Shown piece after piece: positions 2,034-57,924 of a stretch of DNA of 64,000 bases. A program made the translations under genes and the position numbers. This DNA comes from Nitrospinota bacterium (GTDB lineage Bacteria; UBA8248): NCBI GenBank assembly GCA_026706735.1, contig JAPOYD010000139.1:16956-80955 (forward strand), read 5' to 3'. Every line of letters starts with the position of its first letter. The first letter of the stretch is position 1. The notes under the pieces are model-generated. The model had not been told where the DNA came from. It was given only the letters and a program-made list of their open reading frames with translations, and did not search any database.

Positions 2034-3430
2034 TTTTTCAGTTCGAACCTCTCATCATAAATGTCGAAATTCGATGACGCCGCCATGTCTCGGGCCTGCG
2101 TGATGAGCTCCCGCGACAGGTTCGAGATGGCAGGATTTTTGAGAAATTCGACGAAGAAATGGTGATAAAACGCATCGGGCCGCACGTGAACGCGCACCCT
2201 GAGCCTCGCCGCATCCTCTCTTCGTCCCCTCCTGTACCGAAACGTGATGGATTTTTGGGGAGGAATGCGCGTGTCATGGATTTCACGGCTGAAATCGGAC
2301 GAGAGTTTCCGCTCTATCACGTTGATCTGCCTTGAACCCGGTATGGTTCGCCCGTATTTATCCTCAAGTTCGGTGATCACGTCCACCGAGGGCGTGATGT
2401 AGGTAGGAAAATAGTGGCCCGCTCCTGAATTCGTGAGCTCAACCTCGGCCGTCACGATTTCGCCGGACGCTTCCGCTCCCACCCTGACGTCTATCTGCAC
2501 GGCGCCCAGGGTCATTTCCTTGTCATGTATGCCCCGCCACAAATGCGCCCGGTCGGGCATGTGGCAGCTCTGGCAGGCGACCCCCTCCTTGCCCCAAAGG
2601 GAGTTTTTCCACTCGCTGTAGGTATTCTGAATCGATTTCCCGTTCGGCCCGGGAAACGCGTGCTGGTGACAACCCATGCAAAATTCAGAGCGGCTGAAAA
2701 AAAGCGTGCGCTCCACACCGGCATGCGGGCCATTACTTGTCGTATCGTCTGCGCCTTCGGGGGTTTCTTTCTTACGGGGACCATGCACCCGCCAGTTGCG
2801 CACATGACACGAGGCGCAGGCCAGCCCGTGCATCTCCAGTTTCGGGTCGTGGGCCGGGTTTTTCCGCCAGTTCGCCGTAGTACCCGCGCCAATCTTCGCG
2901 CGCTTTTGCTGTTCCGCCAAGGGCGCATGGCACTCGTTGCAGCTTTGCGCATTCGCGGGATTCGTTTTCCACATATCGACGAGCTGTCCGTATATGCCCG
3001 GACCCATCGCCCTGGCGTGAAGCGTGGCCTTCCACTGTTCGTGCTGCTCGGGATGACAACTCCCGCAACGCTCCGGCGAAAGGGAGCGTTCAGCGCCTTT
3101 GTATGATTTCGGCGCCTCGCCCATGGGAGGCAATGGATAGCGAAAGTACTCGTCCACGAAATCCTGCCAACGCTTCCATTTGCCGGGAATCCCTTTCTTC
3201 TCGGCAGCCTCGATGGGGGGAAAGAAACCTTTTGATGTCTTCCGGGAAAACGCCGGGAGAGTGAGAAAGAATATGGAAACGATACAGATCCCGAGTTTCA
3301 AGCGCATTCCATGCTTCCTGTTCCGGCGGCCCGTCTGCTTGACCAGTTTGATTTCACCTAACGACACTCGTGCAGACAAGTTCCTGAAAAAATCCGAGAA
3401 ATCGTAGTGCTGCTCCACGCCCGAATCCAT
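2030..3430 (-). CDS. multihaem c-type cytochrome (5 CXXCH motifs) with N-terminal signal/TM; true start probably the internal Met at ~3307
   Basis: Five CXXCH haem-binding motifs: CGSCH, CNECH, CASCH, CMGCH, CQSCH. Hydrophobic segment LGICIVSIFFLTLPAF follows Met-42. Confidence 0.7.
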   Translation of the reverse strand: MDSGVEQHYDFSDFFRNLSARVSLGEIKLVKQTGRRNRKHGMRLKLGICIVSIFFLTLPAFSRKTSKGFFPPIEAAEKKGIPGKWKRWQDFVDEYFRYPLPPMGEAPKSYKGAERSLSPERCGSCHPEQHEQWKATLHARAMGPGIYGQLVDMWKTNPANAQSCNECHAPLAEQQKRAKIGAGTTANWRKNPAHDPKLEMHGLACASCHVRNWRVHGPRKKETPEGADDTTSNGPHAGVERTLFFSRSEFCMGCHQHAFPGPNGKSIQNTYSEWKNSLWGKEGVACQSCHMPDRAHLWRGIHDKEMTLGAVQIDVRVGAEASGEIVTAEVELTNSGAGHYFPTYITPSVDVITELEDKYGRTIPGSRQINVIERKLSSDFSREIHDTRIPPQKSITFRYRRGRREDAARLRVRVHVRPDAFYHHFFVEFLKNPAISNLSRELITQARDMAASSNFDIYDERFELKN

Positions 3431-3593
3431 TGTGGGCTTAAAGCCCTTTTTTTCTCAACAGGCGCGTTGCCGCAAAAAGTTCATGGCTGAAATCTCGGGA
3501 AATGATATCACCCGGTACAGGTTTTACTTGCCTCATCGAATTGGATAGGGTCTGTCAGAACATTCGAACCAGACCCGACAATTCGGAGGCACG

Positions 3594-4046
3594 ATGAATT
3601 TCACCATACGCCCCGCCACCACCGGGGACACGGAAACGATCGTCCGGTTCAACATCGAGATGGCCCTGGAGAGTGAAAGCCTGAGCCTGGAGCCCGAGAA
3701 AGTCCGCCGGGGCGTGGAAAAATCCCTATCCGATCCATCGGTGGGACGATATTACCTCGCGCACCGGGGCGATGAGATTCTGGGGCAAATCCGGGTCACC
3801 CTCGAATGGAGCGACTGGAACAACGCCCAATACTGGTGGATTCAGAACGTATATGTCGTTCCATCCGAGAGAAAACAGGGCATCTACAGGGCCTTGCACC
3901 ATCACGTCAAAAATCTCGCCGAAGGAGCCGGCGCCTGCGGCCTGCAGCTATACGTCGACGCGCAAAACGCGGCGGCCCAGGCGGTTTACAAGAACCTGGA
4001 CATGGAGCAAAGCCATTATCTGATATTCGAGCAAATGGAGGACTAA
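3594..4046 (+). CDS. GNAT family N-acetyltransferase
   Basis: 150 aa; acetyltransferase-like blocks (RGDEILGQIRV ... QNVYVVPSERKQGIYRAL). Upstream ggaggcacgATG RBS. Confidence 0.7.
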   Translation: MNFTIRPATTGDTETIVRFNIEMALESESLSLEPEKVRRGVEKSLSDPSVGRYYLAHRGDEILGQIRVTLEWSDWNNAQYWWIQNVYVVPSERKQGIYRALHHHVKNLAEGAGACGLQLYVDAQNAAAQAVYKNLDMEQSHYLIFEQMED

Positions 4047-4087
4047 CCGGAAAGGCGAAAAATCGCTCCTTCAATCATACCCGGGAA

Positions 4088-4567
4088 TCAACGGCTCTCC
4101 CGGTTTCTCTTGAGCGGGATGACATCCGCGGGTTTTTGCGAATCCTCCCGGCGGCGGCCCCGCCAGGAGGAAGGCCAAACATAGCGTACGCGCCACAGGG
4201 TTCTGGCCGCTCCTCCCACCGCCCACGCGAGCGTGCTGCCCGCGTCTCGCGTTCTTTTTCCCAGCGAGCGAAACACTTTCTTGCCGCCTTCCTCGCCGAT
4301 GGAGACGAGGCGCGAGGTCGCCTCTTTCGCCGCGCCGATCGGTCGGAGGGCCTGCGCGATCGCCTGGCGCAAAACCCATTTCAGCATCAGGCAAAACACG
4401 ATCGACAGAGCGAAAAAGACGCCCAGCACCTTGAGGCCGCGAGCGGGCTCATCCACTATCATCACGCTCGTCTGGGCGATCCCGTAAAACGCCAGGGCAA
4501 GGATCCCCAGACAGACGGCCACGGCGCCTCCCGAACGGACTATCAACCGCATCAAGCCGAACATCAC
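4088..4567 (-). CDS. hypothetical small membrane protein
   Basis: Two predicted TM helices at the N-terminus, basic C-terminus; no recognisable family. Confidence 0.3.
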   Translation of the reverse strand: MMFGLMRLIVRSGGAVAVCLGILALAFYGIAQTSVMIVDEPARGLKVLGVFFALSIVFCLMLKWVLRQAIAQALRPIGAAKEATSRLVSIGEEGGKKVFRSLGKRTRDAGSTLAWAVGGAARTLWRVRYVWPSSWRGRRREDSQKPADVIPLKRNRESR

Positions 4568-4744
4568 CCTCTCCCAAAAGCCGCCGAAATCAGGGAACGC
4601 ATCTGATTCATCGAGAATACCGCAATTGCGAAACCAAAATCCAGCGCGGGCGTTTCATCTCCTGGGAGATGTTTCCGTTGACGCGCGCAACCTCTCGTTT
4701 TATGTTCACTACCCCGTAAGGAAACATCATGGAGGAGCAGCAAA

Positions 4745-6028
4745 TTGTTCGATATTCGCCTCATCAGAGACGACCCCGAAGCGGTGGCGCGCGCGCTCGC
4801 GCGCAGGGGCGGCGACTGGAACCTCGCCGGAATACTGGAAATCGACGCCCGAAGGCGGGATTTGACCCACCAGGTCGAAAGCCGGGTGGCCGACGTGAGA
4901 AAACGCAGCAAGAAAATCGGTGAACTCAAGCGCAACAGGGCGTCCGATGAGGAGGTGCAGGCGTTTCTGGCCGAAAACCAGCGCTTGACAGCCGAGGCCA
5001 AATCCATGGAGGGAGAGCTGGCCGAACTCGTGCAAAACCAAAACGATTTCCTGCTGGAACTCCCCAACACGCCGCATGAGACCACCCCTGACGGCCAGAG
5101 TGCGGAAGACAACGCCCTGGTGAGGGTCTGGGGCGAGAAACCGGTTTTTGATTTCGCGCCCAAAGCGCACGACGAACTGGGCGAAGCACTGGGGATTCTG
5201 GACATGAAGCGCGCCGTCAAGATAGCGGGCGCGCGGTTTGCGCTCTACCGGGGGGCTGGCGCGCGCTTGGAACGCGCCCTCATCAACTACATGCTCGATC
5301 TGCATACGAACGAGCACGACTACACCGAGTGGCTCCCGCCATTCATGGTGAACCCCGAGGCCATGACGGGCACGGGTCAGCTGCCCAAATTCGAGGAAGA
5401 CCTCTTCCGCGTCGATGACGGAAAATTCTACCTCATCCCCACCGCCGAGGTGCCCGTAACGAACATCCACCGTGAGGAAATACTGAGTGGCGAGGATTTG
5501 CCTCTCAAATACACGGCCTATACGCCCTGTTTCAGGAGCGAGGCCGGCTCTTATGGCCAGGACACGCGCGGCCTCATCCGCCAGCACCAGTTCAACAAGG
5601 TCGAACTCGTCAAGTTCAGCCGGCCCGGGACGAGCTACGAGGAATTGGAGACCCTCACCACAGACGCGGAAGAAGTCCTGAAGCGCCTGGGACTCCACTA
5701 CCGCGTCGTCACACTGTGCGCGGGAGACCTGGGTTTTTCCGCCGCCAAGACGTACGACATCGAAGTCTGGGTGCCCTCTCAGAACACCTACCGGGAGATT
5801 TCCTCCTGCAGCAATTTCGAGGATTTCCAGGCCAGACGCGCCGACATCCGCTACCGTCCCGGGGCGGGCGCGAAGCCCGAATTCGTCCACACCCTGAACG
5901 GCTCGGGTCTCGCCGTGGGCCGTACGCTGGTGGCGATTCTGGAGAATTTTCAGCGCGCGGACGGTTCGGTGGTGATACCCGAAGCCTTGCGCCCCTACAT
6001 GGGCGGAACCGCTTCAATATCTGCCTGA
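4745..6028 (+). CDS. serS: serine--tRNA ligase
   Basis: 427 aa. N-terminal [12 protein letters not shown] coiled-coil arm; class II aaRS motifs ([31 protein letters not shown]). Confidence 0.95.
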
Positions 6029-6631
6029 GACCTACATAACTTCCTGAAAACCAACGATATAAATTTCAGACCTGTCCCGACCCCCGTCATCGCTCCGCCG
6101 CTCCCGCCCGGGGATTCCCGAGGGGCGCCCGGAGCGGAAACCTTTACAGAATCTTTATCCACCACCGCCGCTTTCGCTGATACCATTCAATTCGCTTGAT
6201 CAGCCTCGACGGGCGTTTGGAGAGGCAAAGGGTGAATCCGGCGGGGGACGCCTGACCGCTTCGCGCCAAGGCGCAGAGGCGGCGGCGGGCCGGATACGCC
6301 GCGCGGGGTTTGCCGGCCCCGCACACGGTTCTTCCCGCCCTGGAGACGGGAGCGCCATCCCGTCGCGCGGATGCGCACCCGAAACCCGGCCGCTTGTCCG
6401 CCTTTTGGCTCGGGCGGCTCCGGTCGATTCCTCCGGAAGCGGAAAGCCCGAACGCGGGGTCTCCCCGCGCGGCCCATCGCACGCCCCCGAACGCGGCAAT
6501 CGCTCACTCCTGAATCGCGATTGACCCCGACGCGGCCCTCGGAAAGCCTCGAACGCGGCAATCGCTCGCTCATCGGGGTTGTTGAAAAAGCCCCCGATAG
6601 GGGTTGTTGCCCCCCATCGAGAGTGTTCACT

Positions 6632-6657
6632 GTCATTCCGGCGAAAGCCGGAATGAC
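6632..6657. repeat. 26-nt perfect hairpin gtcattccggc-gaaa-gccggaatgac; member of the ggaatgacg repeat module family
   Basis: Self-complementary. The same arms form the terminal inverted repeats of the element at 29362-29491; partial copy at 31771-31793. Confidence 0.7.
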
Positions 6658-6696
6658 GATCAAAACCCCGTCCCGCACGTCCTCCTCCTGCCTTAA

Positions 6697-6811
6697 AAAC
6701 CACCCCCCCTACCCCCCCTTGACAGGGGGGCAAGAAAAAGCAAAACCCCCTCCGCCCGGCGGGGCGCATCGCCTTTTTATACCCCCCTGTCAAGGGGGGG
6801 TAGGGGGGGTT
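6697..6811. repeat. ~115-bp G/C-tract palindromic intergenic element, copy 1
   Basis: Arms ccccctacccccccttgacagggggg and cccccctgtcaaggggggtaggggg are reverse complements. Near-identical copy at 31650-31762 and a half copy at 26385-26420. Confidence 0.8.
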
Positions 6812-7262
6812 GCCTTTCCGGTCGAGGGGCGTCCCCTCTACCTCCCTCAAGAGACCTTTTTCAACAGCTCCTCATCACTCGCGTTTGACCCCCTGAGTAA
6901 CCCGCCGCTCCGCTTCACCCTGAGTAGCGGCGAAGCCGCGTATCGAAGGGCGAAGCTCGCGGAGAAGCGCCTCCCATCCTTCGATACGCCGCCTTCGGCG
7001 GCTACTCAGGATGAGGTCGATACGGTGGCCATACAAGACGAACTACAAACGCGCTCGCTCCCAAGCCCGGCTTTTTCAACAACCCCTCCTCGCTCGGCTT
7101 CGACCCCTTGCGGCCCTTGGCTAGCTTTGAACGCGGCAATCGCTCCCTTCCCGGCCGCGATTGATCTTAAAACCCGCTCCAAGGCATGCTAAAATGAAGC
7201 GAGGGTTCTCCCCGCTTGCCGGATCAACCCCGACCGGGGAGAGAGGGCTTGCGTTATTCGCG

Positions 7263-7348
7263 GAGGGATGGCCGAGCGGCCGAAGGCGGTGGTCTTGAAA
7301 ACCACTGAGCGAAAGCTCCGGGGGTTCGAATCCCTCTCCCTCCGCCAA
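7263..7348 (+). tRNA. tRNA-Ser (anticodon TGA), class II with long variable arm, CCA encoded
   Basis: Cloverleaf folds by eye: acceptor ggaggga/tccctcc, anticodon loop cuUGAaa, long variable arm, T-loop ttcgaat, discriminator g + cca. Confidence 0.9.
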
Positions 7349-23549: not shown

Positions 23550-25166
23550 TTGGGTATGGGCGAGAACGCTCGAATCGAAATCATCAACCCCATCGCCGCC
23601 GTGGCGGATGAAGGCGGCCCTGGCGAAGGCGCCGCAGTCAAGGGTCTGGACGGGCTCCGCATCGCCCTCCTCGACAACAGCATGCCCCACGCGGGCGATT
23701 TTCTGAACCACGTCGGCGAAGCCTTCGCCGAGCGGCACGACGCGAAGCTCCTGGTGCGCAAGAAGGGCTGGGCCGCCCAGGGCGCAGGCCAGGAGACGCT
23801 CGATGAGATTGCGTCTAACTGCGACGTGGCGGTAACCGGCTTCGGGGTCTGAGGGGGCTGCACGTCGTGGAGTGTCCACGACTCGGCCGAGCTCGAAAAG
23901 CGCGGCGTCCCCACCGTGGTGGTGGTGGGCAACGGCTTCGAGACGGCGGCGCGCAGCTTCGCCAAAGCCTATAAATCCCCCCACCTCCGTCTTCTCCTGG
24001 TGGACGACACCGTGGCCCACCAGGGCGGAGACGCCCTGATGCGCATCGCGCAAAGCGGCGTGGATTCGGTGGCCGCCGAATGGATGAACACAGCGAACGG
24101 AGGTGAGTCCGCAGCCGTCGCCGATGACCCCATCGAGCGGGTCCTCACGATCGCGGGAGACCCCATCGGTGCGAACGGGGCGCTCTTCGATCTGGGGGCG
24201 ACGGACGGGCTGCCCGTCATCCCCCCCACCCTGGAGATGGTGGAAAGGTTCGTGGCGGCCTCGGGCAGAAAGGGCGATGAGGTCATCGCGCGCCTCATGC
24301 CGAGGCTGGCGGACATCACCGTCGAGCGGATCGCGGCCAACGCCGTCATGGCGGGCTGCGCGCCGGGCGTCATGCCCATCCTCGTGACCGCGGTGCAGGC
24401 CATGGGGGCGGAGGAGTACCACGTCAACCACGTCATCACGACGGCGCATACCCTGTTTCCCATCGTCGTGGTGAGCGGCCCCATCGCCCGGGAGATCGGG
24501 ATGAGCGACGGGCGCGACTTGAGTTCGCAGGGCTGGGGGGTGAACGCCTCCATCGGCCGCGCGGTCAAACTGATCATGTTCAACTGCATCGGCGACCTCG
24601 AAAACCGGGGCGCCACATGCCAGGGCCATTTCGCCAAGTATTTCGACGCCATCACCGAGAACGTGGAACAAAGCCCCTGGGAGCCGCTCCACGTGGAGAA
24701 GGGTTTTTCAGAGTCCGACAGCGTGGTGACGGTGTTCACCGCCGAACCCCTCCACATGGTGGACGATCACAGCGCGCTCACCGCCCAGGGCATCCTGGGC
24801 ACATTCGGGACCGTCGCCGCCTGCTCGGGCACCCGGCCGCAGTTCGGCCGCTGCGAGATCATGCTCATCTTCGGCCCCACCCACGCGAACAAGGTCGCAG
24901 AGGCGGGGTTCGACAAGAAGCTCGTGCGCGATTTCCTCTGCGAGGTCTACCGGATTCCGGTAAATACCTTTCCTCCCGAATCACGGGAGCGCTGGAGCGA
25001 CTGGAAGCAGATGCTCTACGGGGTGAACACGATGGAGAACGCGACCCTTCCCTTCGTCGAGGAGAGGGACGACATCACCATCCTGGTGCACGGCGGCGCG
25101 GGGCCGAACTCCCTCCTGGCGCCGGGCGCGCTGAACCACCGATCCGTGACGCGGAAGATCGACTAG
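23550..25166 (+). CDS. candidate selenoprotein: UGSC-like UxxC redox domain fused to a ~420-aa uncharacterised domain; in-frame TGA at 23850-23852 read as Sec
   Basis: ORFs 23550..23852 and 23916..25166 are in the same frame, separated only by TGA; the 21 codons between are coding-like. Local translation is VTGFGV-U-GGCTSW (U-x-x-C). A hairpin starts 11 nt after the UGA. Confidence 0.55.
23861..23887 (+). promoter_or_regulatory. SECIS-like stem-loop 11 nt downstream of the in-frame UGA
   Basis: gtcgtgg-agtgt-ccacgac: 7-bp stem, apical loop contains G and U, and 2 more closing pairs after an internal loop. Confidence 0.4.
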
Positions 25167-25169
25167 ACC

Positions 25170-26204
25170 ATGCCCGAGGCGCTCCTGAGCGAACTGCCGC
25201 CCGGTGCGGAAGCCGCACTCGAAGCCGCGATGGAGGGGGGGCCGGGCGACGGCCTTCCCCTCGTTCCGCCCACGCGCAGGGCGGTCGACGCCATGCTCGG
25301 CGCCGTTCAGGAGGGCCCCCGCCACGCGCTGGGGATCATGGCGCCCGCCATGGAAGAGGTGACGGTGGGCGACGCCGCCGTCTGCGCGGTGGCGGCCGGG
25401 TGCAAGCCTTCGTATTTCCCGGTGGTTCTGGCGGCGCTCGAAGCCGTGATGGAGCCCGAGTTCAATTTTCTGGCCATCCAGGCGACCACCGAGCTCGCCT
25501 CGCCTCTGGTGATCGTCCACGGGCCGATCGCCGAGCGGTTAGGCGTGCACTCGGGCAGTGGATGCCTGGGGCCGGGCTTCCGGGCGAACGCCGCGATCGG
25601 CCGCGCCGTCCGCCTGGCCGCCGTAAGGCTGGGAATGGCGGTTCCCGGCGAGACCGACATGGCGACTTTCGGACACGGCGGGAAGTTCTCCGCCTGTTTC
25701 GCCGAGGCGGTCTGCGGCTGGGAGCCGCTCCACGCGACGCGGGGGTTTCGCGCCGAGCAGAGCGCGGTGACGGTGGTGGGCGCGGATGCGCCTGTGAACG
25801 TGAACGATTACGCGAGCGGCAGTGCGGAGAGCGTGCTGCGCATGATAGCCGGCACGATGGCCTATCCCGGCTCGAACAACGCCCAGGGCGGCGGGGAGGT
25901 GCTCCTCGTCATCAGCCCCCAGCACCTGGGTCTCCTCGTCTCGGGCGGCATGGATCGGATGGATGTGCAGCGCGCGCTGTTCGAGGGCGCGCGCGTGCCC
26001 ATGAAGCGTTTTTCGCCCGAGATAGCCGAGCGCGTGCGGGGCAGGCGGCCGGGGCTTTTTACAGACGCCGAACCCGATGCCGTGCCGGTGGCGGACGGGC
26101 CGGCGAGCATTCTCATCGCCGTGGCCGGGGGGCCGGGGAGCCACACGCTGTTCTTTCCGACCTACGGCGAGACCCGGGCGGTCACGAAGCCTGTACGCGG
26201 CTAG
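25170..26204 (+). CDS. uncharacterised protein, paralog of the C-terminal domain of the candidate selenoprotein
   Basis: Aligns with 23916..25166 over shared blocks (DGLP[VL][IV]PPT, VMAGCAPG/VAAGCKPS, NA[SA]IGRAV[KR]L, GWEPLH). Same frame as the upstream gene, TAG stop, 3-nt gap. Confidence 0.6.
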   Translation: MPEALLSELPPGAEAALEAAMEGGPGDGLPLVPPTRRAVDAMLGAVQEGPRHALGIMAPAMEEVTVGDAAVCAVAAGCKPSYFPVVLAALEAVMEPEFNFLAIQATTELASPLVIVHGPIAERLGVHSGSGCLGPGFRANAAIGRAVRLAAVRLGMAVPGETDMATFGHGGKFSACFAEAVCGWEPLHATRGFRAEQSAVTVVGADAPVNVNDYASGSAESVLRMIAGTMAYPGSNNAQGGGEVLLVISPQHLGLLVSGGMDRMDVQRALFEGARVPMKRFSPEIAERVRGRRPGLFTDAEPDAVPVADGPASILIAVAGGPGSHTLFFPTYGETRAVTKPVRG

Positions 26205-26384
26205 GCGAACGATACGGGCGAGAGAAAAGAAAAGGGAATTGAATTCATAACGAGGGGGTGTAGCCGGACAACCCCTCATCGGGGTTGTCCGGCCCTCCGT
26301 GGTTGTCCTTTTGCAGGATGGTTACAATCAGGACAGGCACGGAGGCCTCGGACAGGCACAGAGACCTGTCCGCTACAAAACCAA

Positions 26385-26420
26385 CCCCCCTACCCCCCCT
26401 TAACAGGGGGGTAAAGGCGA
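26385..26420. repeat. half copy of the G/C-tract palindromic element
   Basis: aacccccctacccccccttaacagggggg. Confidence 0.6.
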
Positions 26421-26494
26421 TGCCCCCCGACGAGGGGTTATTCAACACCCCCTGGCGGGGGAATGATGAATTCAACGGGTAGATTCTTTATCAA

Positions 26495-27904
26495 TTGACT
26501 GGCAAGAAGGAGACACCGATGGCGGACAGGAGCAACGTCGACGTTCTCGTAGTCGGAGCGGGCATGGCCGGGGTGTGCGCCGCCATCGCCGCGGCGCGGG
26601 GCGGCGCGCGGACGGTCCTCACGGACCGCTACGCCTTCCTGGGGGGCAACGCGACCGCGGGCCTTCTCGGCAACTTCCTCACCTTCCACAACATGAAGGG
26701 GGAGCAGATCTGCGACGGTATCCCCCAGGAGATCGTGGACGAGCTCATCAAGCTGGGCGGCGCCTTTCCCGAGGGCCACCTCCACAACGCTTACGGCAAC
26801 TCCTACTCCGTAACGCCCCAGGACGGCGAGGTGCTCAAGCTCGTGAACCAGAAGCTCTGCCTGGAGGCGGGCGTGGACCTGGTGCTGAACACCTACACGA
26901 TCGGACCCATCATGGACGGCGACCGGGTGGCCGGGGCGCGCATCGTGAACAAGAGCGGGGAGAGCGAGATCCGCGCGCAAGTCGTCATCGACGCGAGCGG
27001 GGACGCGGACATCGCCGCGCAGGCGGGCGCGCCCTTCCATCTCGGTGATGAAGAGGGGAAGATGATGTCCATCAGCCTCTTCTCGCGGATGGGGAACGTG
27101 GACCTTGACCGCCACATCCAGCACGTGAAGGAGAACCCCTACAACTTCATGCTCGGCGAGGACCCCTACATCGGGAAGAGCCGCGAGGAGATCGCTGCAG
27201 GGCTCCGCACCCACAAGGACTACCCCCTCGTGACCGGCTACTACGAGTCGGTCAAGCTCGCCCAGTCGCGCGGTGAATTTCACCCGAACCGCCAGCGGGT
27301 GGTGTTTTCCATCACCACCATCCCCGGCGTCGTCACCATCAACTCAACGAGCATGCTGGGCTACAGCGGAATCGACAACGACGATCTGAACCAGGTCGCC
27401 ATCGAGGGCCGCGAGCAGGTATTCAAGGTGCGCGATTTCTACCGCAAATACGCCCCCGGCTTCGAGGAGTGCTACGTGGTGGATTCGGCCTCGGCCATCG
27501 GCGTCCGAGAGACGCGCCGCATCATCGGGGAGGAGACCCTCACGGATGAGGACTGCATCGAGGCGCGCAAGGGACCGCGCGACATCGGCCAGGGGGCCTA
27601 CTGCCTGGACGTCCACCAGCCCACCGGCGTGATCGAGCACAAGCACGTCAGGGACGGCGAGGCCTACGGCATTCCCTACGGCGTCATGCTTCCCCAGAAG
27701 ATCGAAAACTGCCTCGTGGCGGGCCGGCCCGTCTCGAGCGATCGCTTCGCGAACGGCTCCGTGCGCAACCAGGCCCACATCATGACCATCGGGCAGGCGG
27801 CGGGTACGGCGGCGGCCATGTGCGTGGAGCGCAGGACGACCCCGCACGAGCTGCCGGTCGAGCCGCTGCGGGAGAAGCTTCGCCAGGATGGAGCGGTCGT
27901 GTGA
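26495..27904 (+). CDS. FAD-dependent oxidoreductase (PF12831-like)
   Basis: N-terminal dinucleotide-binding motif VDVLVVGAGMAGVCAAIAAARGG. 469 aa. Confidence 0.75.
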   Translation: MTGKKETPMADRSNVDVLVVGAGMAGVCAAIAAARGGARTVLTDRYAFLGGNATAGLLGNFLTFHNMKGEQICDGIPQEIVDELIKLGGAFPEGHLHNAYGNSYSVTPQDGEVLKLVNQKLCLEAGVDLVLNTYTIGPIMDGDRVAGARIVNKSGESEIRAQVVIDASGDADIAAQAGAPFHLGDEEGKMMSISLFSRMGNVDLDRHIQHVKENPYNFMLGEDPYIGKSREEIAAGLRTHKDYPLVTGYYESVKLAQSRGEFHPNRQRVVFSITTIPGVVTINSTSMLGYSGIDNDDLNQVAIEGREQVFKVRDFYRKYAPGFEECYVVDSASAIGVRETRRIIGEETLTDEDCIEARKGPRDIGQGAYCLDVHQPTGVIEHKHVRDGEAYGIPYGVMLPQKIENCLVAGRPVSSDRFANGSVRNQAHIMTIGQAAGTAAAMCVERRTTPHELPVEPLREKLRQDGAVV

Positions 27905-27956
27905 CCGCTTCTTGGAATTTGCATCATCCGATCACCCAGAAAAGGGAGGAGAAACG

Positions 27957-29228
27957 ATGAAACGTTCCAGACGCTGGCTGTGCCTTATCGCCGTAGCCGC
28001 CCTCGTAGCGGGGTTAGCACTTCCCGCCGCGGCGGCCAAGACGGTCACGCTCCTCATCCACCCGACCCTGTTCAAGGCGGGGGGCGGGCCTAAGGGCGTC
28101 GTGGCCGACCTCGAGAAGGAAAAAGGCATCAAGGTGACCGTGGTGACCACCCCCTTCGGGAAGATCAAGGACAAGGCGGTGCTCTCCTTCGCAGCCGGAG
28201 GCGGGCAGTTTGACGTGGTGTCCTGGGTGGGCCCATGGGTCACCGAGGAAACGATAGGCTTCCTGGAGCCGCTGGACAAGTACATCAAGAGCGCGCCCAA
28301 GGGCTATGCCTACGGGGACATCATCCCCGCCCTGTCGAATATCACCCGCTTTCCAAAGCCTGACGGGCCCGCCTACGGCGTTCCCTACCGGACGGGAACG
28401 GGCATCGTCTACTACCGAAAGGACCTCTTCGCGGCGGCCAAACTCTCGATTCCCAAGACGTGGGATGAGTTCCTCGCCGCGGCCGAGAAGCTGAACCAGC
28501 CCGGCAAGGTCTACGGCGTCGTCCAGCGCGGAAAGCCGGGCGTCCACGTGGAGCAGGATTTCCTGCGCTATCTCCACAGCTCGGGCCACGGCGTACTCTC
28601 GGCCGACAACAAGACCTGCCTGCTGGATCGCGCCGATTCGATCAAGCTGCTCGAGGTTTTCGGAAAACCCTTCCACAGCGGCTGGTCCCCGCCCGACATG
28701 CTGGCCTGGGGCCGGGACGAATACCGCACCGCCATGATGCAGGGCCGCGCGGCCATGGGGGTTTACTTCTCCCCCTACTGGGGCCTGATGACCAACCCCA
28801 AGAAGGCCAAAACGGCCGACAAGCTGGGCTGGTTCCTCGTTCCCTCGATGGACGGGAAGAACCGCGGCGCTACCCTGAACGGCGGCTGGCACCTCATCAT
28901 GGACAAGAAGAGCAAGAACAAGGCGGCGGCTTGGGAACTCATCATGGCGCTCACCAACAAAAAGAACCAGCTCCGCGGCGCCCTGTACTGGGCGAACGGA
29001 CCCGTCCGCAGTTCGGTCTACACCAACGCGGACTATCTGAAAAAATTCCCGGTGGCGAAGGCGTGGCTGACCGCCATCAGCCGCGGCAGCGGCGAAGCCC
29101 AGCATCCGCGCGCCGCGGAGATCAGCGACGTCACCTCGAAGGAAGTCATCAACTTCCTGCAGAAGAAGAAGAGCGCCAAGCAGGCCATGGGGGACGCCTG
29201 CAAGCAGATCAACGCGGTCATCAAGTAG
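27957..29228 (+). CDS. ABC transporter substrate-binding protein (carbohydrate-type, SBP family 1)
   Basis: RBS aagggagga then ATG 27957. Signal peptide MKRSRRWLCLIAVAALVAGLALPAAA. 423 aa. Confidence 0.85.
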   Translation: MKRSRRWLCLIAVAALVAGLALPAAAAKTVTLLIHPTLFKAGGGPKGVVADLEKEKGIKVTVVTTPFGKIKDKAVLSFAAGGGQFDVVSWVGPWVTEETIGFLEPLDKYIKSAPKGYAYGDIIPALSNITRFPKPDGPAYGVPYRTGTGIVYYRKDLFAAAKLSIPKTWDEFLAAAEKLNQPGKVYGVVQRGKPGVHVEQDFLRYLHSSGHGVLSADNKTCLLDRADSIKLLEVFGKPFHSGWSPPDMLAWGRDEYRTAMMQGRAAMGVYFSPYWGLMTNPKKAKTADKLGWFLVPSMDGKNRGATLNGGWHLIMDKKSKNKAAAWELIMALTNKKNQLRGALYWANGPVRSSVYTNADYLKKFPVAKAWLTAISRGSGEAQHPRAAEISDVTSKEVINFLQKKKSAKQAMGDACKQINAVIK

Positions 29229-29361
29229 GGCGTCTGGGGAATAGAGGGTTTGTAGGGACAGGCCCCCGTGCCTGTCCCTGTCAAGCGTAACCAAGGAGAT
29301 GGATATATCCGATACGGGCGGCCACGGGGGGCCGCCCCTACGGGTGAATGCGCTTTTGTTC

Positions 29362-29491
29362 GTCATTCCGGCGGATGCCGGAATCCAGGGACTTTGTTTT
29401 TGTATTTGTCTTTTCGCTTTATCGTTTTTCTTGGTCTTCCTGCGATTCGGTATCCCCGTCTGCTCTGGATTCCGGCATCCGCCGGAATGAC
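29362..29491. repeat. MITE-like 130-bp element: 27-bp terminal inverted repeats gtcattccggcggatgccggaatccag flanking an AT-rich 76-bp core
   Basis: Left arm 29362-29388 is the exact reverse complement of right arm 29465-29491. Confidence 0.75.
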
Positions 29492-29713
29492 GGCGGTGGT
29501 CAATTCCGAATGACGAGGGATGGGAAGGTTGTTTCCCCGCGTCCCTCGATACGGCCCTTGCGGGCCTACTCGGGATGAGGGTGCTTTTATTTTTCCTCAC
29601 CCTGAGTAGCCGCGTAGCGGCGTATCGAAGGGTACTCCCGATACGCCCCATTTGACCCTCCCTCCTCGGTCGGGTCAAACCCTCGATACGGCGCGCAAGC
29701 GCGCCTGCTCGGG

Positions 29714-30700
29714 ATGAGGCGGGTTGAAGGTGCGTCCGGCACAGAGGCCGGCGGAGGAACGGAGAGGATCGTGAATACCGGAGCCGTTCAGGAAACGGCG
29801 CGGCGGGGGAGCCGGGCTTGGCTCACCCCCGCGAGAAAACAGGCGCTGGCGCCCTACCTGCTCATGTCGCCCGCCTTCGCCATACTCACCGGAATCCTGG
29901 TCTATCCCTCGCTTTACAACATCTATCTCTCCATGTGGAAATGGCGTCTCACAACGCCGCATCTTTCCACCTTCGTCGGCATCGACAACTACGTTCGCCT
30001 GCTCACGGCCGACCCCGACTTCTGGCCGGTGACGCGCTTCAGCCTGGGCTTCACCGTGGCCACCATCGCCCTGGAATTCATCATCGGGGTGGCGAGCGCC
30101 TTGCTGCTCTACGGCTTGGTGCGCGGCAGGCGGCTCATGACGTCCTTTCTACTCACCCCCTACATGGTCGCCCCCATCGCCGTGGGCCTCGGCTGGCGGC
30201 TCATGTGGGACCGCGATATCGGCATCGTGAACTACATCATCACCTTCGTGGGGCTCGCCAAGGTGAACTGGCTCGCCGAGACCGACGCCGCTTTCTGGGC
30301 CATCGTGATCTCAGAAGTCTGGCGCTCGACGCCCTTCGTCACCATGATCCTCCTGGCGGGCATCACGGCGCTTCCCAACGAGGTGTTCGAGGCCGCCCAC
30401 GTGGACGGCGCGAACCGGGTGCAGGTGTTCCGGCGGATCACCTTTCCGCTCATCCTTCCCCCGCTGGTGGTGGCGCTGCTCTTCCAGACCATCTTCAAGC
30501 TGCGGGTGTTCGAGATACCCTACATCCTCACCGAGGGAGGGCCGGGCACGTCCACCATGCCCTACGGCCTGCTCATCCAGCGCACTTATTTCCGTTATTT
30601 CGACGTGGGCAACGCGGCGGCCACCTCGGTCGTCCTCCTCGTGCTCGGCACGGGGATCGCGCTCGCCTACCTGCGGCTCATCCAGGACAGGGACGGCTAG
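29714..30700 (+). CDS. carbohydrate ABC transporter permease (MalF/UgpA-like); start uncertain
   Basis: 6 TM helices; EAA-type loop (EAAHVDGANRVQVFRRITFPL). Confidence 0.85.
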   Translation: MRRVEGASGTEAGGGTERIVNTGAVQETARRGSRAWLTPARKQALAPYLLMSPAFAILTGILVYPSLYNIYLSMWKWRLTTPHLSTFVGIDNYVRLLTADPDFWPVTRFSLGFTVATIALEFIIGVASALLLYGLVRGRRLMTSFLLTPYMVAPIAVGLGWRLMWDRDIGIVNYIITFVGLAKVNWLAETDAAFWAIVISEVWRSTPFVTMILLAGITALPNEVFEAAHVDGANRVQVFRRITFPLILPPLVVALLFQTIFKLRVFEIPYILTEGGPGTSTMPYGLLIQRTYFRYFDVGNAAATSVVLLVLGTGIALAYLRLIQDRDG

Positions 30701-30703
30701 GCG

Positions 30704-31552
30704 ATGGCGCGGGGCGAAGAGCAGATCGGGCCGGGGATCCCCTCCTTCCCGGCGGCGCGCGGCGCGATGATGGTGCTGCTCGCGTTCAGCCTGTTCCCGA
30801 TCCTGTGGATCATGCTCACCTCGGTGAAGAACGAGACCGCCATCTTCAGCATCCCGCCCAAGGTCTTCGTGAGCCCGGATTTCTCCTCGTACTGGAAGTT
30901 CCTGGGCTTCGGCAACGAATCGGCTCTGCGGTTCATCTGGAACAGCACCTTCATCGCGACGATTACGACGTTCCTCACCCTGTTCGTCTCTTCCCTGGCG
31001 GCCTACGCGTTTTCGCGCTACCGTTTCCGGGCGTCGAACTATCTTCTGTTCTTCATGCTGGCGACGCGCCTGCTGCCGCCCGTCACCGCGGTGGTTCCGC
31101 TCTACCTGTTGTTCCGCTACCTCCAGATACTCGACACGCGGTTCATCCTGATCCTCATCTACACCGCCCTCAACATCCCCTTCGGCACCTGGCTGATGAA
31201 GGCGTTTTTCGACGGCATCCCGAAAGAACTCGAAGAGGCCGCTGCTCTCGACGGCTGCGGGGCGCTGCGCACACTGGCGCGGGTGACCTTTCCCCTCGCC
31301 TCCTCAGGGATAGCCGCGACCTCCATCTTCGTCTTCCTGCTGGCCTGGAACGAGTTCATGTTCGCGTTCATGCTGACCAACGTGCACGCGCGCACCATCC
31401 CCGTCCGGCTGGCGGAGACCATGGGCGAGATGCAGGTATTCTGGCAGGACATGTCCACCCTGGCGACGCTGATCATGCTGCCCGCCCTGCTCGTGGGCTT
31501 TTTCATGCAGCGCTATCTCATCCGCGCCCTCACGGCGGGGGCGGTGAAGTAA
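30704..31552 (+). CDS. carbohydrate ABC transporter permease (MalG/UgpE-like)
   Basis: EAAALDGCGALRTLARVTFPL loop. 282 aa. Confidence 0.85.
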   Translation: MARGEEQIGPGIPSFPAARGAMMVLLAFSLFPILWIMLTSVKNETAIFSIPPKVFVSPDFSSYWKFLGFGNESALRFIWNSTFIATITTFLTLFVSSLAAYAFSRYRFRASNYLLFFMLATRLLPPVTAVVPLYLLFRYLQILDTRFILILIYTALNIPFGTWLMKAFFDGIPKELEEAAALDGCGALRTLARVTFPLASSGIAATSIFVFLLAWNEFMFAFMLTNVHARTIPVRLAETMGEMQVFWQDMSTLATLIMLPALLVGFFMQRYLIRALTAGAVK

Positions 31553-31649
31553 TGGCCGTGTTCGGGGTCAAACGCGAGCGAAAAGGGGTTGTTGAAAAAG
31601 TCCCTGAGAGGGTAAAGGCAACCCCCTTGAAAGGGAAACTTCATAAAAG

Positions 31650-31762
31650 CAACCCCCCCTACCCCCCCTTGACAGGGGGGCAAGAAAAAGCAAAGGCCCT
31701 CTGCCCGTCGGGGGTGCATCGCCTTTTTATACCCCCCTGTCAAGGGGGGGTAGGGGGGGTTC
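31650..31762. repeat. ~115-bp G/C-tract palindromic intergenic element, copy 2
   Basis: Near-identical to 6697-6811; centre differs at a few positions. Confidence 0.8.
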
Positions 31763-31910
31763 GTTTTCAGGGCGCTGGAATGACGATCAAAAGCGAGGAG
31801 CAAAACCACCTTTCCGCATTAGATAGCACTCTTGGGGACATCACTCCCCCCGCAAGGCCTTTTTCACCAGCCGCGTTCGGGGCGCGGGGCGCGATGATGG
31901 AGGAGTCGGC

Positions 31911-32987
31911 TTGAGCACCATCAGTATGGAGAACCTGAGCAAGCACTTCGGCAGCGTCCGCGCCGTGGACGAGATCGACCTCGAAGTCGCCGAGGGGGAG
32001 TTCCTCGTCCTGGTGGGGCCCTCGGGCTGCGGGAAGACGACGACGCTGCGCATGGTGGCCGGGCTGGAGTTTCCCACGGGCGGCGAGATACGCGTCTCGG
32101 GCGAGCGCGTGAACGAGATTCCCGCCAAGGATCGCAACATGGCCATGGTGTTCCAGAACTACGCCCTCTACCCCCACATGACGGTCTACGAGAACATGGC
32201 CTTCGGCCTGCGCGTCCGGCGGTTCTCCCAGGGAGACATCGACCGCCGCGTCAAGGAGGCCGCCGCCCTGATGGGGCTGGAGGACCTGCTCGCCCGCAAG
32301 CCCCGCCAGCTCTCGGGCGGACAGCGCCAGCGCGTGGCGGTCTGCCGGGCCATCGTGCGCGACCCGGTGGCGTTTCTCTTCGACGAGCCGCTCAGCAACC
32401 TGGACGCCAAGCTCCGCGTCACCGCCCGGGCCGAGATACGCAAGCTCCAGCGCCGCCTGGGCACGACCTCCATCTACGTCACCCACGACCAGACCGAGGC
32501 GATGACGATGGGAGACCGCATCGTCGTCATGGATCTGGGAAAGATCCTGCAGGTGGGGCCGCCCATCGAGCTCTACGACCGGCCCGTCAACCGCTTCGTG
32601 GCGGGGTTTCTGGGAAGTCCGGCCATGAACTTCATCGAGGGCCGCGCACACCGGGCGGAGGGAGGTCTCGAACTCGAAGCGGGCGCCCTGCGCTTCCCCC
32701 TGCCTGGGATCTGCCGGGAGGGAGAGGCCTACACCCTCGGCTTCCGCCCCGAGCACCTGGGTTTTGGAGACGGCGGGGCGCGCCCCGTATCCGCCGAGGG
32801 GCGGGTGGAACTCGTCGAACCCCTGGGGTCGGACACCTTCGTCGCACTCGACCTGGGCGGAGAGGTCCTCACCGTGAAGGAAGAAGGCCATTTCCGCGCG
32901 CAGGTGGGCGAGCAGATCCGGGTGTTCTTCGACATGGAGAACGCCCACCTGTTCGACGGCGACACCGGAACGCGGGTGGAGGGGTGA
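31911..32987 (+). CDS. ABC transporter ATP-binding protein (MalK/UgpC-type with C-terminal TOBE domain)
   Basis: Walker A GPSGCGKTT, signature LSGGQRQR, Walker B LFDEPLSNLD. Confidence 0.9.
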   Translation: MSTISMENLSKHFGSVRAVDEIDLEVAEGEFLVLVGPSGCGKTTTLRMVAGLEFPTGGEIRVSGERVNEIPAKDRNMAMVFQNYALYPHMTVYENMAFGLRVRRFSQGDIDRRVKEAAALMGLEDLLARKPRQLSGGQRQRVAVCRAIVRDPVAFLFDEPLSNLDAKLRVTARAEIRKLQRRLGTTSIYVTHDQTEAMTMGDRIVVMDLGKILQVGPPIELYDRPVNRFVAGFLGSPAMNFIEGRAHRAEGGLELEAGALRFPLPGICREGEAYTLGFRPEHLGFGDGGARPVSAEGRVELVEPLGSDTFVALDLGGEVLTVKEEGHFRAQVGEQIRVFFDMENAHLFDGDTGTRVEG

Positions 32988-53235: not shown

Positions 53236-53352
53236 GCCTGTAGGAACAGGCCCCTGTGCCTGTCCTTAATAGAGGTTTAGCCAATGGGGGACAACCACGC
53301 GGAAGTTGTCCCTGCAACCTAAACCGCAAACCCTTCCTACTCGCTTTGACCC

Positions 53353-53590
53353 TCACGACCTGAGCTTCTCCATCAGCCAGTCCGCGATGCGGGTGACGCC
53401 GAGCGAGAGGTTGTCGCGCTGGCAATTCTGGGGTTCCCCTCCTTGACAGTGAAGATCTTGAGCATCTTGTCCTTAGAACCCAAGGCGTCGAAGAGTTTGC
53501 GCGCGTTGCTCGTGGGCATCTGCCCGTCATCGACCCCGTGGGTGAGCAGGAGCGGACACATCATCTTCTGCACCACGCCTGCGCCCGGGC
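53353..53590 (-). pseudogene. 3'-terminal fragment (about 78 codons) of a paralog of the alpha/beta hydrolase gene at 56463..57638
   Basis: ~85-90% nucleotide identity to 56463-56700, including its own stop. Reading frame broken near 53440; upstream part absent. Confidence 0.7.
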
Positions 53591-53592
53591 AG

Positions 53593-55938: not shown

Positions 55939-56462
55939 GGCATCTGCCCCCTTCCGGCGGGGGGTTGGCCGGATCGGTTACCGGAAGATGCAGAATTCGT
56001 GCTGAAGTCATGTGAATACTGAATTATTCACACCTAATTCATATCATTACTCGTATAATCCATACAATAGCAAAGGGCAAGTTCAAAGACCTCGACAGTC
56101 GGCGCATGGGCGACTTGGAGAGCTCCGAGGCCTCCATGAGAAGGAACATATTCGCTGGACGTCATCAAGCCGCTCGTAATTTTTTTGGCAGGCCGAAAGC
56201 AGTATGGTCGATTCGTGGTCCAAGCTGGTTGCGACACAATCCATGAGGTATAAGTTCCTGAAGCGGGTTCCCGCCTGTCGGCCTTCCGGGGAAGGCCGGC
56301 AGGTATTCAATTGCCAGGCAGGGGTCGGTGGTGGTTCCGTCATCCCTTGCAGTTTAAGGAGGTAGTAGTGCGTCCTCTCGGGGCGAATACCACCTTCTGC
56401 GAAAGCCGCAAACCCTTAATCTGCGGACGGTCCATTCCTCCCGCATCGCTCGGAATTGATCC

Positions 56463-57638
56463 CTAGGGCCTAAGCTTTTCCATCAGCCAATCCGCAATAT
56501 AGGTGACACCGAGCGAGAGGTTGTCGCGCTGGCAGTGCTGGGAGCCCCCCTCCTTGACGGTGAATATCTTGAGCGTCTTGTCCTTAGAGCCCACGGCGTT
56601 GAAGAGTTTGCGCGCGTCGCTTGTGGGCACCTGCTTGTCGTCGACCCCATGGGTGAGCAGGAACGGACACCGCATCTTCTGGACCACGCCGTCGAGCCGG
56701 AAGGCTTCGAGCTTCTTGAAGGTGTCCTCGAAATTCGTCGTGTTGAAAATCCACAAGATGTGGTGGCCGGGCACGGAGAGTTCCGTCTGCATTGAGGCGG
56801 CGACGCGCTTTTTCCACGTTGCGTGATAATCCCAGCACGCCCCCCAAGCGACGCACGCCTTGTAGCGTCTCTCCATGCTGGCGATGCGTGGCGCGTAATA
56901 ACCGCCCAAGCTGATGCCGATTACGGCGGCTTTTTTTGCGTTCACGTCGCCACGCGTTTCGAGATAATCGAGTGCGGCGCTTCCCGCGGCTTCGTAGTCG
57001 GGACGAAGATATTGTTCCCTGAAGCGGATGGCCTCCCCGGTTCCCGGCCCGTCCATGACGAGACAGCTCATCCCGCGCCGCACGAATTCCTCAACGCCGC
57101 GCAGGTATTGAATCTCCTTCGTGATGTCGAGACCATCGAAATAGACAATAACGGGCGGCCTGATCTTTTTCGTGTTCTGCGCGTGGACGAAATACCCCGG
57201 CAGGTTCACGCCGTTCTCATACGGCACCTCCACGCGCTCGATCCTGGGCGCGTCGGTCAGCTTCGTGAAGCGCAGGAAGCTGTCCAGCGCGAGCCGGTAG
57301 GCGTCTTTCGCCCGCTTGTCCTTGGGCGTGCGGAAGCGCTCCCCAATTTGAAAGTACATCGCGGCGCGCTTGTGGTGGTAAGCGGCGCTAAGTCGGTGGT
57401 TGTTCTCTTCTGCCGCTAATCCCAAATCGCGCACTTTGTTCGCCATGCGCACCCACTCGCGGAACCAGAGCGCGTCGTTGCCGACGTCTTTCCTGAGCCG
57501 TCTGCCCACCTGGTCCACCTCGCCGATATCGGCCCCGCCCCAGGGGGCCACGGAGAGGCAGTTCACGACGCCCGAGGACCAGCGGTAGTCCTCGGGGAAA
57601 TAGGTGAACCATCGGGTGTTGGCGGGTGCTTCCGGCAT
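56463..57638 (-). CDS. alpha/beta hydrolase (dienelactone-hydrolase / YcjY-like)
   Basis: AAGGAG RBS 7 nt before ATG 57638. Nucleophile elbow GISLGG, catalytic Asp/His region THGVDD. Confidence 0.8.
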   Translation of the reverse strand: MPEAPANTRWFTYFPEDYRWSSGVVNCLSVAPWGGADIGEVDQVGRRLRKDVGNDALWFREWVRMANKVRDLGLAAEENNHRLSAAYHHKRAAMYFQIGERFRTPKDKRAKDAYRLALDSFLRFTKLTDAPRIERVEVPYENGVNLPGYFVHAQNTKKIRPPVIVYFDGLDITKEIQYLRGVEEFVRRGMSCLVMDGPGTGEAIRFREQYLRPDYEAAGSAALDYLETRGDVNAKKAAVIGISLGGYYAPRIASMERRYKACVAWGACWDYHATWKKRVAASMQTELSVPGHHILWIFNTTNFEDTFKKLEAFRLDGVVQKMRCPFLLTHGVDDKQVPTSDARKLFNAVGSKDKTLKIFTVKEGGSQHCQRDNLSLGVTYIADWLMEKLRP

Positions 57639-57924
57639 GACGCGCTCCTTTGCTGGGTGATGAGGCCGCCCGGTTTTCGCCGTGGCGACTCTGAACAAGT
57701 TTTATGGAAACGGGAGTTCATCCTAGCACTTTCGGCCTGCGCGCCGAACCGCCGGAGGTCTTTTCTAGCTCAGGATAGGTTCGGCAATGGAGGCGGCAAG
57801 ATTCTCCACATCCCTTCGTCCCGCCCCCGAAACCTGTTAAGATGCCTGGGCCAAGTAATGGCGCATGGATTCGCCGAAAGCCCGGTTTTTCCTCTCAACA
57901 AGTCATCTATACGTAGTCGAGGAT

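Follow-up and report, generated by a model that had tools for sequence, protein, structure and literature searches.

What is the long palindrome that recurs, almost unchanged, in unrelated spacers of one bacterial contig, and what put it there? The question is raised by a 64,000-nucleotide (nt) stretch of Nitrospinota bacterium DNA (GenBank assembly GCA_026706735.1, contig JAPOYD010000139.1, positions 16,956 to 80,955; hereafter, the window), which holds two full copies and one half copy of a palindrome with C-tract/G-tract arms. Here, we describe this palindrome in the window and in related genomes. [quoted passage not shown]

Copies in the window

Copy 1 (6703-6809) and copy 2 (31653-31759) are 107 nt long and consist of a 28-nt arm (CCCCCCCTACCCCCCCTTGACAGGGGGG), a 51-nt core, and the perfect reverse complement of the arm. 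The arms of copy 1 (6703-6730 and 6782-6809) enclose a polar core (6731-6781) in forward (F) orientation on the plus strand; those of copy 2 (31653-31680 and 31732-31759) enclose a core (31681-31731) that is likewise in F orientation. Across 108 aligned columns, 101 are identical, and the differences are confined to the middle of the core. The original prediction, made from the window alone, had described two near-identical full copies with reverse-complementary arms and a variable centre; the sequence is as it described, with the length refined to 107 nt. The 100-nt flanks of the two copies are unrelated (54/110 and 52/108 identical, ∼49%), which rules out a larger duplicated block including the flanks, an explanation that the prediction itself had raised. 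A 26-nt arm query (≤3 mismatches) was found five times in the window and never in 100 dinucleotide shuffles.

The predicted half copy is real and spans 26377-26437. It comprises a linker (AAAACCAA, 26377-26384), one arm (26385-26411) with C6 replacing C7 and the loop TTAACA, and a truncated reverse-type core (26412-26437) that matches, in reverse complement, the right half of a full copy (GGCGATGC). The truncated core is adjoined by a module, TTATTCAACACCCCC (26438-26452), that is TIR-like in a by-eye comparison with the TIR consensus. Copy 1 has an A-tract linker on its left (AAAAACCA, “CC type”; 6695-6702) and the T-tract counterpart on its right (TTGCCTTT, “GG type”; 6810-6817). RNA folding predicted one hairpin spanning each full copy (about −88 kcal/mol; z, −8 to −9).

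Distribution and architecture across relatives

An exact 22-nt arm pattern was searched against genomes (as 8-kb stretches), metagenome contigs, and viral contigs. Matches were obtained in at least 116 8-kb genomic stretches and came, among the matches listed, from about 12 metagenome-assembled genomes (MAGs), all other than the window’s own genome, labelled “Nitrospinota bacterium,” “uncultured Nitrospinaceae,” or “bacterium”; some of them are closed long-read chromosomes. The arm was also matched in 83 stretches of metagenome contigs. The viral contigs gave 0 matches, and a phage origin was rejected. Nine of the roughly 12 MAGs share 89 to 95% nucleotide identity with the window’s genes, so the carriers form one genus-level clade; the MAG names, together with a paper that used an SB0662 bin for Poribacteria, suggest that this clade is sponge associated. 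The palindrome therefore does not occur only here, a concern attached to the original prediction: it recurs hundreds of times in relatives, at unrelated intergenic sites. For bacteria, these arm sequences are not reported in the searchable literature.

With up to four mismatches allowed, the arm occurred 350 times in 0.93 Mb of loci, as 146 convergent pairs and 58 singles. Twenty-nine singles were inspected, after contig-end cases and arms with more than two mismatches had been set aside, and most were degraded or interrupted pairs. Spacings between paired arms fell into four classes (75 to 79, 97 to 116, 131 to 151, and 268 to 493 nt), of which the shortest was the mode (75 pairs, both window copies included); in the longer classes, either the core is duplicated and comes with an inner C6-TGWCAA-G5 hairpin or the apex holds other, nested repeat families. 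One such family, abundant in L015, L024, L038, L097, L045, L062, and other loci and absent from the window, has the arms ATCA(A/C)TCCCCCCTTGAGGG and CCCTCAAGGGGGGAGTGAT around a conserved centre (GGTGGGGGG...CCCCCCACC) and is frequently nested at the apex of the C7-TA-C7 element. Many contigs of short-read MAGs (L004, L010, L019, L034, L036, L077, L079, L090, L114, and L116) start or stop inside an arm, as expected of a repeat present in high copy number.

Alignment of 81 canonical copies gave the consensus AAA(A/G)(C/G)CAA - C7 TA C7 TTG(A/T)CA G6 - CAAGAAAAAGCAAAACCCCC..GGGGGCGCATCGCCTTTTTATA - C6 TG(T/A)CAA G7 TA G7 - TTG(C/G)(C/G)TTT. Each arm (28 to 30 nt) is a C7/G6 hairpin with a TTGWCA loop and is near-invariant save for the loop, its tract lengths being almost constant over more than 290 arms. 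The cores were all distinct (81/81; median pairwise identity within one MAG, 0.81). At loop position W, the two arms of a pair carry A or T independently of each other (71/146 pairs identical versus 58.7 expected), so the continuity of the long hairpin is not maintained at that base. No covariation beyond conservation was detected, core stems had no excess of compensatory changes, and the isolated core was no more stable than its shuffles (z ∼0); covariation thus gave no signal of a structure under selection, the arms being invariant.

It is very improbable that the G7-TA-G7/C7-TA-C7 tracts are selected as G-quadruplex or i-motif DNA or RNA, with the palindrome incidental. Judged from its letters, GGGGGGGTAGGGGGGG fits the pattern G3-N1-G3-N2-G3-N1-G3, tract lengths are near-constant, and G7/C7 runs are rare elsewhere in the window (9 of 14 lie in these elements). 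Each G-tract, however, opposes a perfect complementary C-tract 50 to 80 nt away, so that duplex or hairpin formation competes strongly, and quadruplexes are not needed for the polymorphism, nesting, insertion sequence (IS) ends, or duplications described below.

The polar core was found in both orientations (48 F and 33 reverse [R]). Linkers were mostly heterotypic, with AAAACCAA at one end and AAAGGCAA at the opposite end (31 versus 8 homotypic); the specific target AAAACCCTTT that this arrangement would imply was ruled out, as there were no empty sites of that kind. Relative to the linkers, core subtype b always points the same way (10:0), which copying of the whole unit would be expected to produce, and subtype a is mixed (10:7). 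Conservation fades 20 to 30 nt beyond the arms, where a few small hairpin modules occur as alternatives. At the arms, no excess of direct repeats was found at any symmetric or asymmetric offset, and there was no flank covariation over 95 to 105 ends, which argues against a general target duplication at the arms.

Outer units with IS1182-type ends

Copy 1 lies inside a 297-bp unit (6575-6871) with a left TIR, GGGGTTGTTGAAAAAGCCCCC (6575-6595), a right TIR, GAGACCTTTTTCAACAGCTCC (6851-6871), and a target-site duplication of 5 bp, TCATC, as direct repeats on either side (6570-6574 and 6872-6876). The unit of about 115 bp in the original prediction holds as a palindrome and is usually not the whole element. 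Folded as single-stranded DNA, positions 6575-6871 pair the TIRs and nest the palindrome between them (−80 versus −48 kcal/mol; z = −8).

The ends of the 297-bp unit are the same as those of an IS at locus L156, where two arms 1.7 kb apart enclose an open reading frame (ORF) of 480 amino acids (aa). NCBIfam assigns the ORF to the IS1182-family transposases (355 bits; cutoff, 270), and its Pfam matches are DUF772, DDE_Tnp_1_6, and DDE_Tnp_1. The IS was located at L156 (2788-4230), L126 (5883-7322), L153 (49-1488), L005 (6680-7999), and L056 (66-1484), with the ends GGGGCTGTTGAAAAACCC... and ...GGGTTTTTCAACAGCCCC; at all five loci the end sequences are GGGGYTGTTGAAAAAG and CTTTTTCAACARCCCC, to which the window modules at 6575-6595 and 6851-6871 correspond. 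The arms themselves were rejected as IS ends, since the sole ORF between distant arms belongs to this IS, which has its own, different ends. No autonomous element bounded by arms was found: arm-to-arm intervals of 268 to 493 nt hold repeats only, and the 1.7-kb case at L156 is an inserted IS.

Insertion sites could be read at several loci. In L126 and L056, the IS splits the loop of an arm hairpin (CCCCCCTGACAA / IS / GACAAGGGGGGGTAGGGGGGG), and excising the IS with one GACAA restores a canonical element. A second IS copy in L056 has the duplication (C)TGATA, so that duplications at IS insertions are 5 to 6 bp long (GACAA and CTGATA), and in L005 the IS lies in the loop of a different C6/G6 hairpin family. 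A 328-bp miniature with the same ends sits in the inner hairpin of an L065 element with the duplication TTGTC; the orthologous element in L011 is canonical. A second IS1182-like paralogue (3171-4574), whose ends differ (GAGACTGTGAAA...), interrupts one of the IS copies in L056.

End motifs were counted around the palindromes at large. The motif TGTTGAAAAA occurred near them 137 times facing inward versus 8 times facing outward, 20 to 70 nt from the arm, and at least one inward motif lay within 200 nt of 103 of 143 elements (74/86 with two mismatches allowed). Adjacent inward-facing TIRs formed 104 to 105 pairs spanning 69 to 441 bp, mostly 170 to 380 bp; 53 pairs contain a whole palindrome, 9 contain one arm, and the remaining 43 enclose palindromes of other families (doublets of GTAGGG REPs, CACTCCCCCCTTGAGGG elements, and hairpins of the GTCATTCCGGC and CTACTCAGGATGAGG types). 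In 21 of 104 pairs, the ends carried an exact direct repeat of 5 nt, compared with 3.7 ± 1.8 in shuffles (maximum, 12 in 1,000). The outer layer is thus made of miniature elements with IS1182-type ends and duplications of ∼5 bp that prefer the loops of C-tract/G-tract hairpins.

Placement, possible host effects, and turnover

The statistics of genomic context rest on a crude gene caller based on GC content at third codon positions (GC3) and are approximate. Elements are intergenic, with just 9 of 146 overlapping predicted ORF ends. Spacers that bear them were tandem, convergent, and divergent in the ratio 58:30:25, close to the baseline supply of long spacers (143:63:80); no enrichment at gene 3′ ends was seen, and divergent spacers hold elements too. 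Core orientation relative to transcription was 19:10, which is not significant. In the window, the genes on either side of each of the three copies are co-directional (+,+), and copy 2 lies within an ABC (ATP-binding cassette) transporter operon. The original prediction had put the copies downstream of convergent or terminating genes; neither the three copies nor the family at large bear this out. It had also noted a TTGACA-17-TATACA-like spacing, possibly coincidental. No TTGACA-17-TATAxx geometry exists: a sigma-70 promoter in the TTGACA loops was rejected, there being no −10 element at 16 to 18 nt and the promoter scan being negative in copies 1 and 2. With Rfam 15, only two tRNA-Ser genes in the window reached the gathering score, and searches at E-value thresholds added only sub-threshold matches to generic microRNA hairpins, which rules out a known RNA family.

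A scan with a terminator-like consensus matched the outward-facing arm on both strands, with T-tracts that are interrupted (TTGCCTTT and TTGGTTTT). Such matches would be expected if the palindrome were a host-selected regulatory element (a bidirectional terminator, an mRNA stabiliser or processing site, or a protein-binding site) whose arms are under purifying selection locus by locus. The very stable hairpin, the A-tract and T-tract flanks on both strands, and arms far more conserved than cores across species fit that proposal as well. REPs occur within the malEFG operon of Escherichia coli, and the position of copy 2 between permease and ATPase genes resembles theirs. We nonetheless regard a regulatory origin as improbable. 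Convergent or tandem gene ends are not enriched, divergent (promoter) spacers are used as often as their availability predicts, the orientation bias is not significant, the T-tracts are interrupted, neither an Rfam family nor covariation was found, and orthologous sites gain, lose, and rebuild the element between genomes whose genes are 92 to 97% identical. Effects on the host (termination by the hairpin with its U-tract, or RNase processing within the ABC operon) are possible as by-products; the data on context, orientation, and turnover lend no support to a primary host function.

The turnover itself is seen at orthologous spacers, which hold different mosaics in the genomes just mentioned. 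At the site of copy 2, longer versions with reversed cores and other flanks are present in L113 and L007, and the element is absent from L100. The half-copy site is occupied in L103 by a complete element with two arms; in L010, an arm and a full core can be seen up to the end of the contig. Conversely, positions 29229-29713 of the window lack a C7-TA-C7 element that is present in L103, L007, and L100. One clean indel was found, between L122 (with the element) and L189 (without it); the 144 bp consist of GAAAACCAA followed by arm, core, and arm, and at their borders lies a direct repeat of 7 nt (TTGCCTT), each copy of which has one mismatch. In this case the palindrome was gained or lost as a unit. 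The family is therefore high copy, intergenic, insensitive to context, and gained or lost between close relatives.

Reversed cores at an orthologous site might also be produced by an invertible switch, in which the arms of 30 nt serve as recombination sites that flip the polar core. Both core orientations exist, the orientation of subtype a is uncoupled from linker polarity, and Correia elements have been reported to invert (PMC10969869). Against this, the core has neither a promoter nor any special structure, recombinase synapsis would have to take place over a very short segment (51 bp), the polarity of subtype b is fixed, and the flanks at the orthologous sites differ as well, so that independent insertions explain the change in orientation. 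We find a switch scarcely credible.

How the palindrome may move

The reading that we favour, as stated above, is that of a mobile repeat carried mostly within TIR-bounded units. An IS1182-family DDE transposase, acting in trans, would move these units, the palindrome being internal cargo that would spread together with them. The cargo would in turn provide fresh hairpin-loop targets, and new units would insert in old ones. Hairpin-loop targeting of this sort would account for the nested (Russian-doll) arrays, the long versions with several cores, half copies such as that at 26385-26437, and the spacers filled with repeats.

Several observations weigh against this reading. No IS1182 copy lies within the window. 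Copy 2 has inward TIR-like modules on its left (GGGGTTGTTGAAAAAGTCCC, 31585-31604) and right (GGCCTTTTTCACCAGCCGC, 31856-31874; conserved at the orthologous site in L113, L007, and L100), and these have no matching 5-bp duplication. Depending on the stringency of matching, 12 to 40 elements have no TIR within 200 nt. The other families wrapped by 43 of 105 TIR pairs mean that the wrapper may be a common nest or target and not the vehicle. Most wrapped units have lost the duplication, an exact 5-nt repeat being intact in just 10 of 61 palindrome-carrying pairs. The 81 distinct cores give no sign of a recent burst of identical copies. Finally, the clean indel between L122 and L189 concerns a bare palindrome, has an end that is not of IS1182 type, and could equally be a slippage deletion.

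Two other accounts of the movement were considered. In the first, the IS1182 transposase recognises the structure of a hairpin loop, the miniatures carry such hairpins, and the G7-TA-G7 arms are kept by selection for recognition and not by recent copying. If this were true, each insertion would create new targets, recognised as a hairpin, cruciform, or quadruplex, and intergenic space would fill with palindromes. We keep this as a tentative idea, on the unlikely side.

The second is a serious rival: a separate mobiliser, such as a dedicated REP-associated tyrosine transposase (RAYT). The palindrome would be a true REPIN, its arms being REPs and the doublet being the replicative unit, which a single-copy RAYT (Y1/HUH) dedicated to it would move in the form of a single-stranded hairpin, leaving no target duplication, and the IS1182 wrapper would be an unrelated co-resident. 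The architecture fits the published definition (PMC3116915), with inverted doublets of fixed spacing far outnumbering singlets, conserved arms, a looser spacer, and random placement outside genes. General target duplication is absent at the arms, G-TAG-G is present in the arm, the clean indel comprises the palindrome alone, and RAYT genes exist in the clade.

RAYT genes were sought with E. coli RayT and the clade’s own RAYT as queries, in a limited sample of loci. A RAYT-like gene (PF01797) was found in L084 (7503-7973, minus strand), with its own GTAGGG-type REP doublet inserted in frame (peptide ...GTVGTGPRACPDAGQPRGAGQPRGVGQPRGVVPT...). Its closest homologues (P0001, P0003, and P0004) are at loci L118 to L120 (GC, 0.61 to 0.62), where the RAYT genes are flanked by GTAGGG-type REPs such as GTAGGGACAGGCCCCTGTGCCTGTCC. 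At all four loci inspected (L084, L118, L119, and L120), GTAGGG-type REPs flank the RAYT gene and no C7-TA-C7 arm lies within 3 kb of it, and a search of ∼1.6 Mb of element-rich loci yielded no further RAYT-like ORF. Within this sample, an association of RAYTs with C7-TA-C7 arms was thus rejected, the only RAYTs found belonging with GTAGGG-type REPs; the clade houses a classical REPIN-RAYT system (GTAGGG) alongside the C7-TA-C7 family. Besides the lack of an arm-flanked RAYT in this sample, GTAG, which in REPs stands 5′ of the hairpin, is found 3′ of it in the arm, there is no master sequence among the 81 cores, and the spacer has no covariation beyond conservation. A true REPIN is therefore doubtful in our view. 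The original prediction of a mobile palindrome of REP/MITE type was right in that the repeat is mobile, recurring and varying in presence between relatives; the arm-flanked RAYT that a REP would call for was sought and not found.

Gene context in the window

Neighbouring genes were identified with Pfam and ARAGORN. Copy 1 lies downstream of serS (4745-6028, plus strand) and upstream of a tRNA-Ser gene (7262-7347, plus strand). The spacer between them (6029-7261) is 1.2 kb long, gene free, and almost wholly composed of repeats from at least five families. It holds TGTTGAAAAAG ends at 6580, 6856, and 7071, a GTCATTCCGGC..GCCGGAATGAC hairpin (the GTCATTCCGGCGAAAGCCGGAATGAC hairpin) at 6632-6657 within the 297-bp unit, CGAACGCGGCAATCGCTC repeats at 6470, 6532, and 7110, and TCACCCTGAGTAGCGGCGAAGCCGCGTATCGAAGGG at 6915. 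Two ORFs across the spacer (6371-7192, plus strand, and 6200-6850, minus strand) have no Pfam match and are probably spurious.

The half copy follows an unnamed ORF (25170-26204, plus strand) and precedes a gene for a flavin adenine dinucleotide (FAD) oxidoreductase (26495-27904, plus strand). The unnamed ORF (344 aa) is adjacent to another on the plus strand (23916-25166, 416 aa), neither having a Pfam match; internal repeats ∼1,040 nt apart (D14 and D17) suggest that the two may be tandem paralogues. The ABC transporter genes then follow in a row on the plus strand, encoding a solute-binding protein (27888-29228), two permeases (29714-30700 and 30704-31552), and an ATPase (31911-32987), with copy 2 between the second permease and the ATPase. 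A GTAGGG-type REP doublet (TGTAGGGACAGGCCCCCGTGCCTGTCC ... GGGCGGCCACGGGGGGCCGCCCCTAC) lies at 29249-29345, between the solute-binding protein and the first permease. Elsewhere in the window, a direct repeat of ∼250 bp (53346-53592 and 56456-56703; repeat families D1 and D5) has copies 81 to 85% identical and 3.1 kb apart; they lie at, or close to, the ends of two minus-strand ORFs (53593-55938 and 56463-57698).

Comparison with known systems

The elements explain several features of the clade’s genomes, namely, gene-free spacers as long as that between serS and tRNA-Ser (1.2 kb), ORFs that are probably spurious (6371-7192, for example), and short-read contigs that break inside arms. They also place very stable hairpins inside operons, where these could modulate expression, and they offer a tractable example of several palindromic families co-evolving with a hairpin-loop-targeting IS in uncultured, probably host-associated bacteria.

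IS1397 and ISKpn1 insert in bacterial interspersed mosaic elements (BIMEs), and the ISs that target REPs (ISPpu9 and IS1397/ISKpn1) belong to the IS110/IS1111 and IS3 families. Among these, ISPpu9 inserts in the REPs of Pseudomonas putida (PMC8450116). As in those cases, an IS here inserts specifically in palindromic extragenic repeats; unlike them, it is of the IS1182 family and enters the loop of a C-tract/G-tract hairpin with a 5-bp duplication.

The REPINs of Pseudomonas fluorescens SBW25, which go with RAYTs (PMC3116915), share with the palindrome inverted GC-rich palindromic units at fixed spacings, a less conserved spacer, a hairpin formed by the whole, hundreds of extragenic copies, singlets that resemble decayed doublets, and the lack of target duplication at the arms. 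In contrast to REPINs, the C7-TA-C7 family has no arm-flanked RAYT that could be found and no dominant master sequence, its arms are C7/G7 homopolymer tracts, and the element usually lies inside IS1182-type terminal repeats. The GTAG conserved 5′ of the hairpin in REPs has its counterpart inside G7-TA-G7, on the 3′ side of the arm hairpin.

IS-derived MITEs (PMC10969869) are the closest match for the outer unit of 170 to 380 bp, which is non-coding and intergenic, carries the TIRs of a resident IS, and makes duplications of ∼5 bp. The present units differ in that the best-conserved part is the internal palindrome and not the TIRs, that one pair of TIRs wraps several unrelated cargoes, and that insertion is aimed at hairpin loops, with units nesting in one another. 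Intergenic mosaics of a few short palindromic modules inserted into each other are known from the BIMEs of E. coli and the BOX, RUP, and SPRITE elements of Streptococcus pneumoniae (PMC10969869). Here, by contrast, the modules have other sequences, elements are nested far more deeply (repeats make up nearly all of spacers as long as 1.2 kb), and an identified IS is involved. Correia repeat-enclosed elements of Neisseria are similar in size (∼100 to 150 bp), have inverted arms of 26 to 30 bp, form a long RNA hairpin, and lie in both orientations and within operons; they have TA duplications, a promoter, and integration host factor (IHF) sites, whereas the palindrome has neither a TA duplication nor a promoter. 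The known categories of mobile DNA are unchanged by these elements, which are a new family, with a habit of nesting, of an already known kind of selfish DNA and not a new kind of system.

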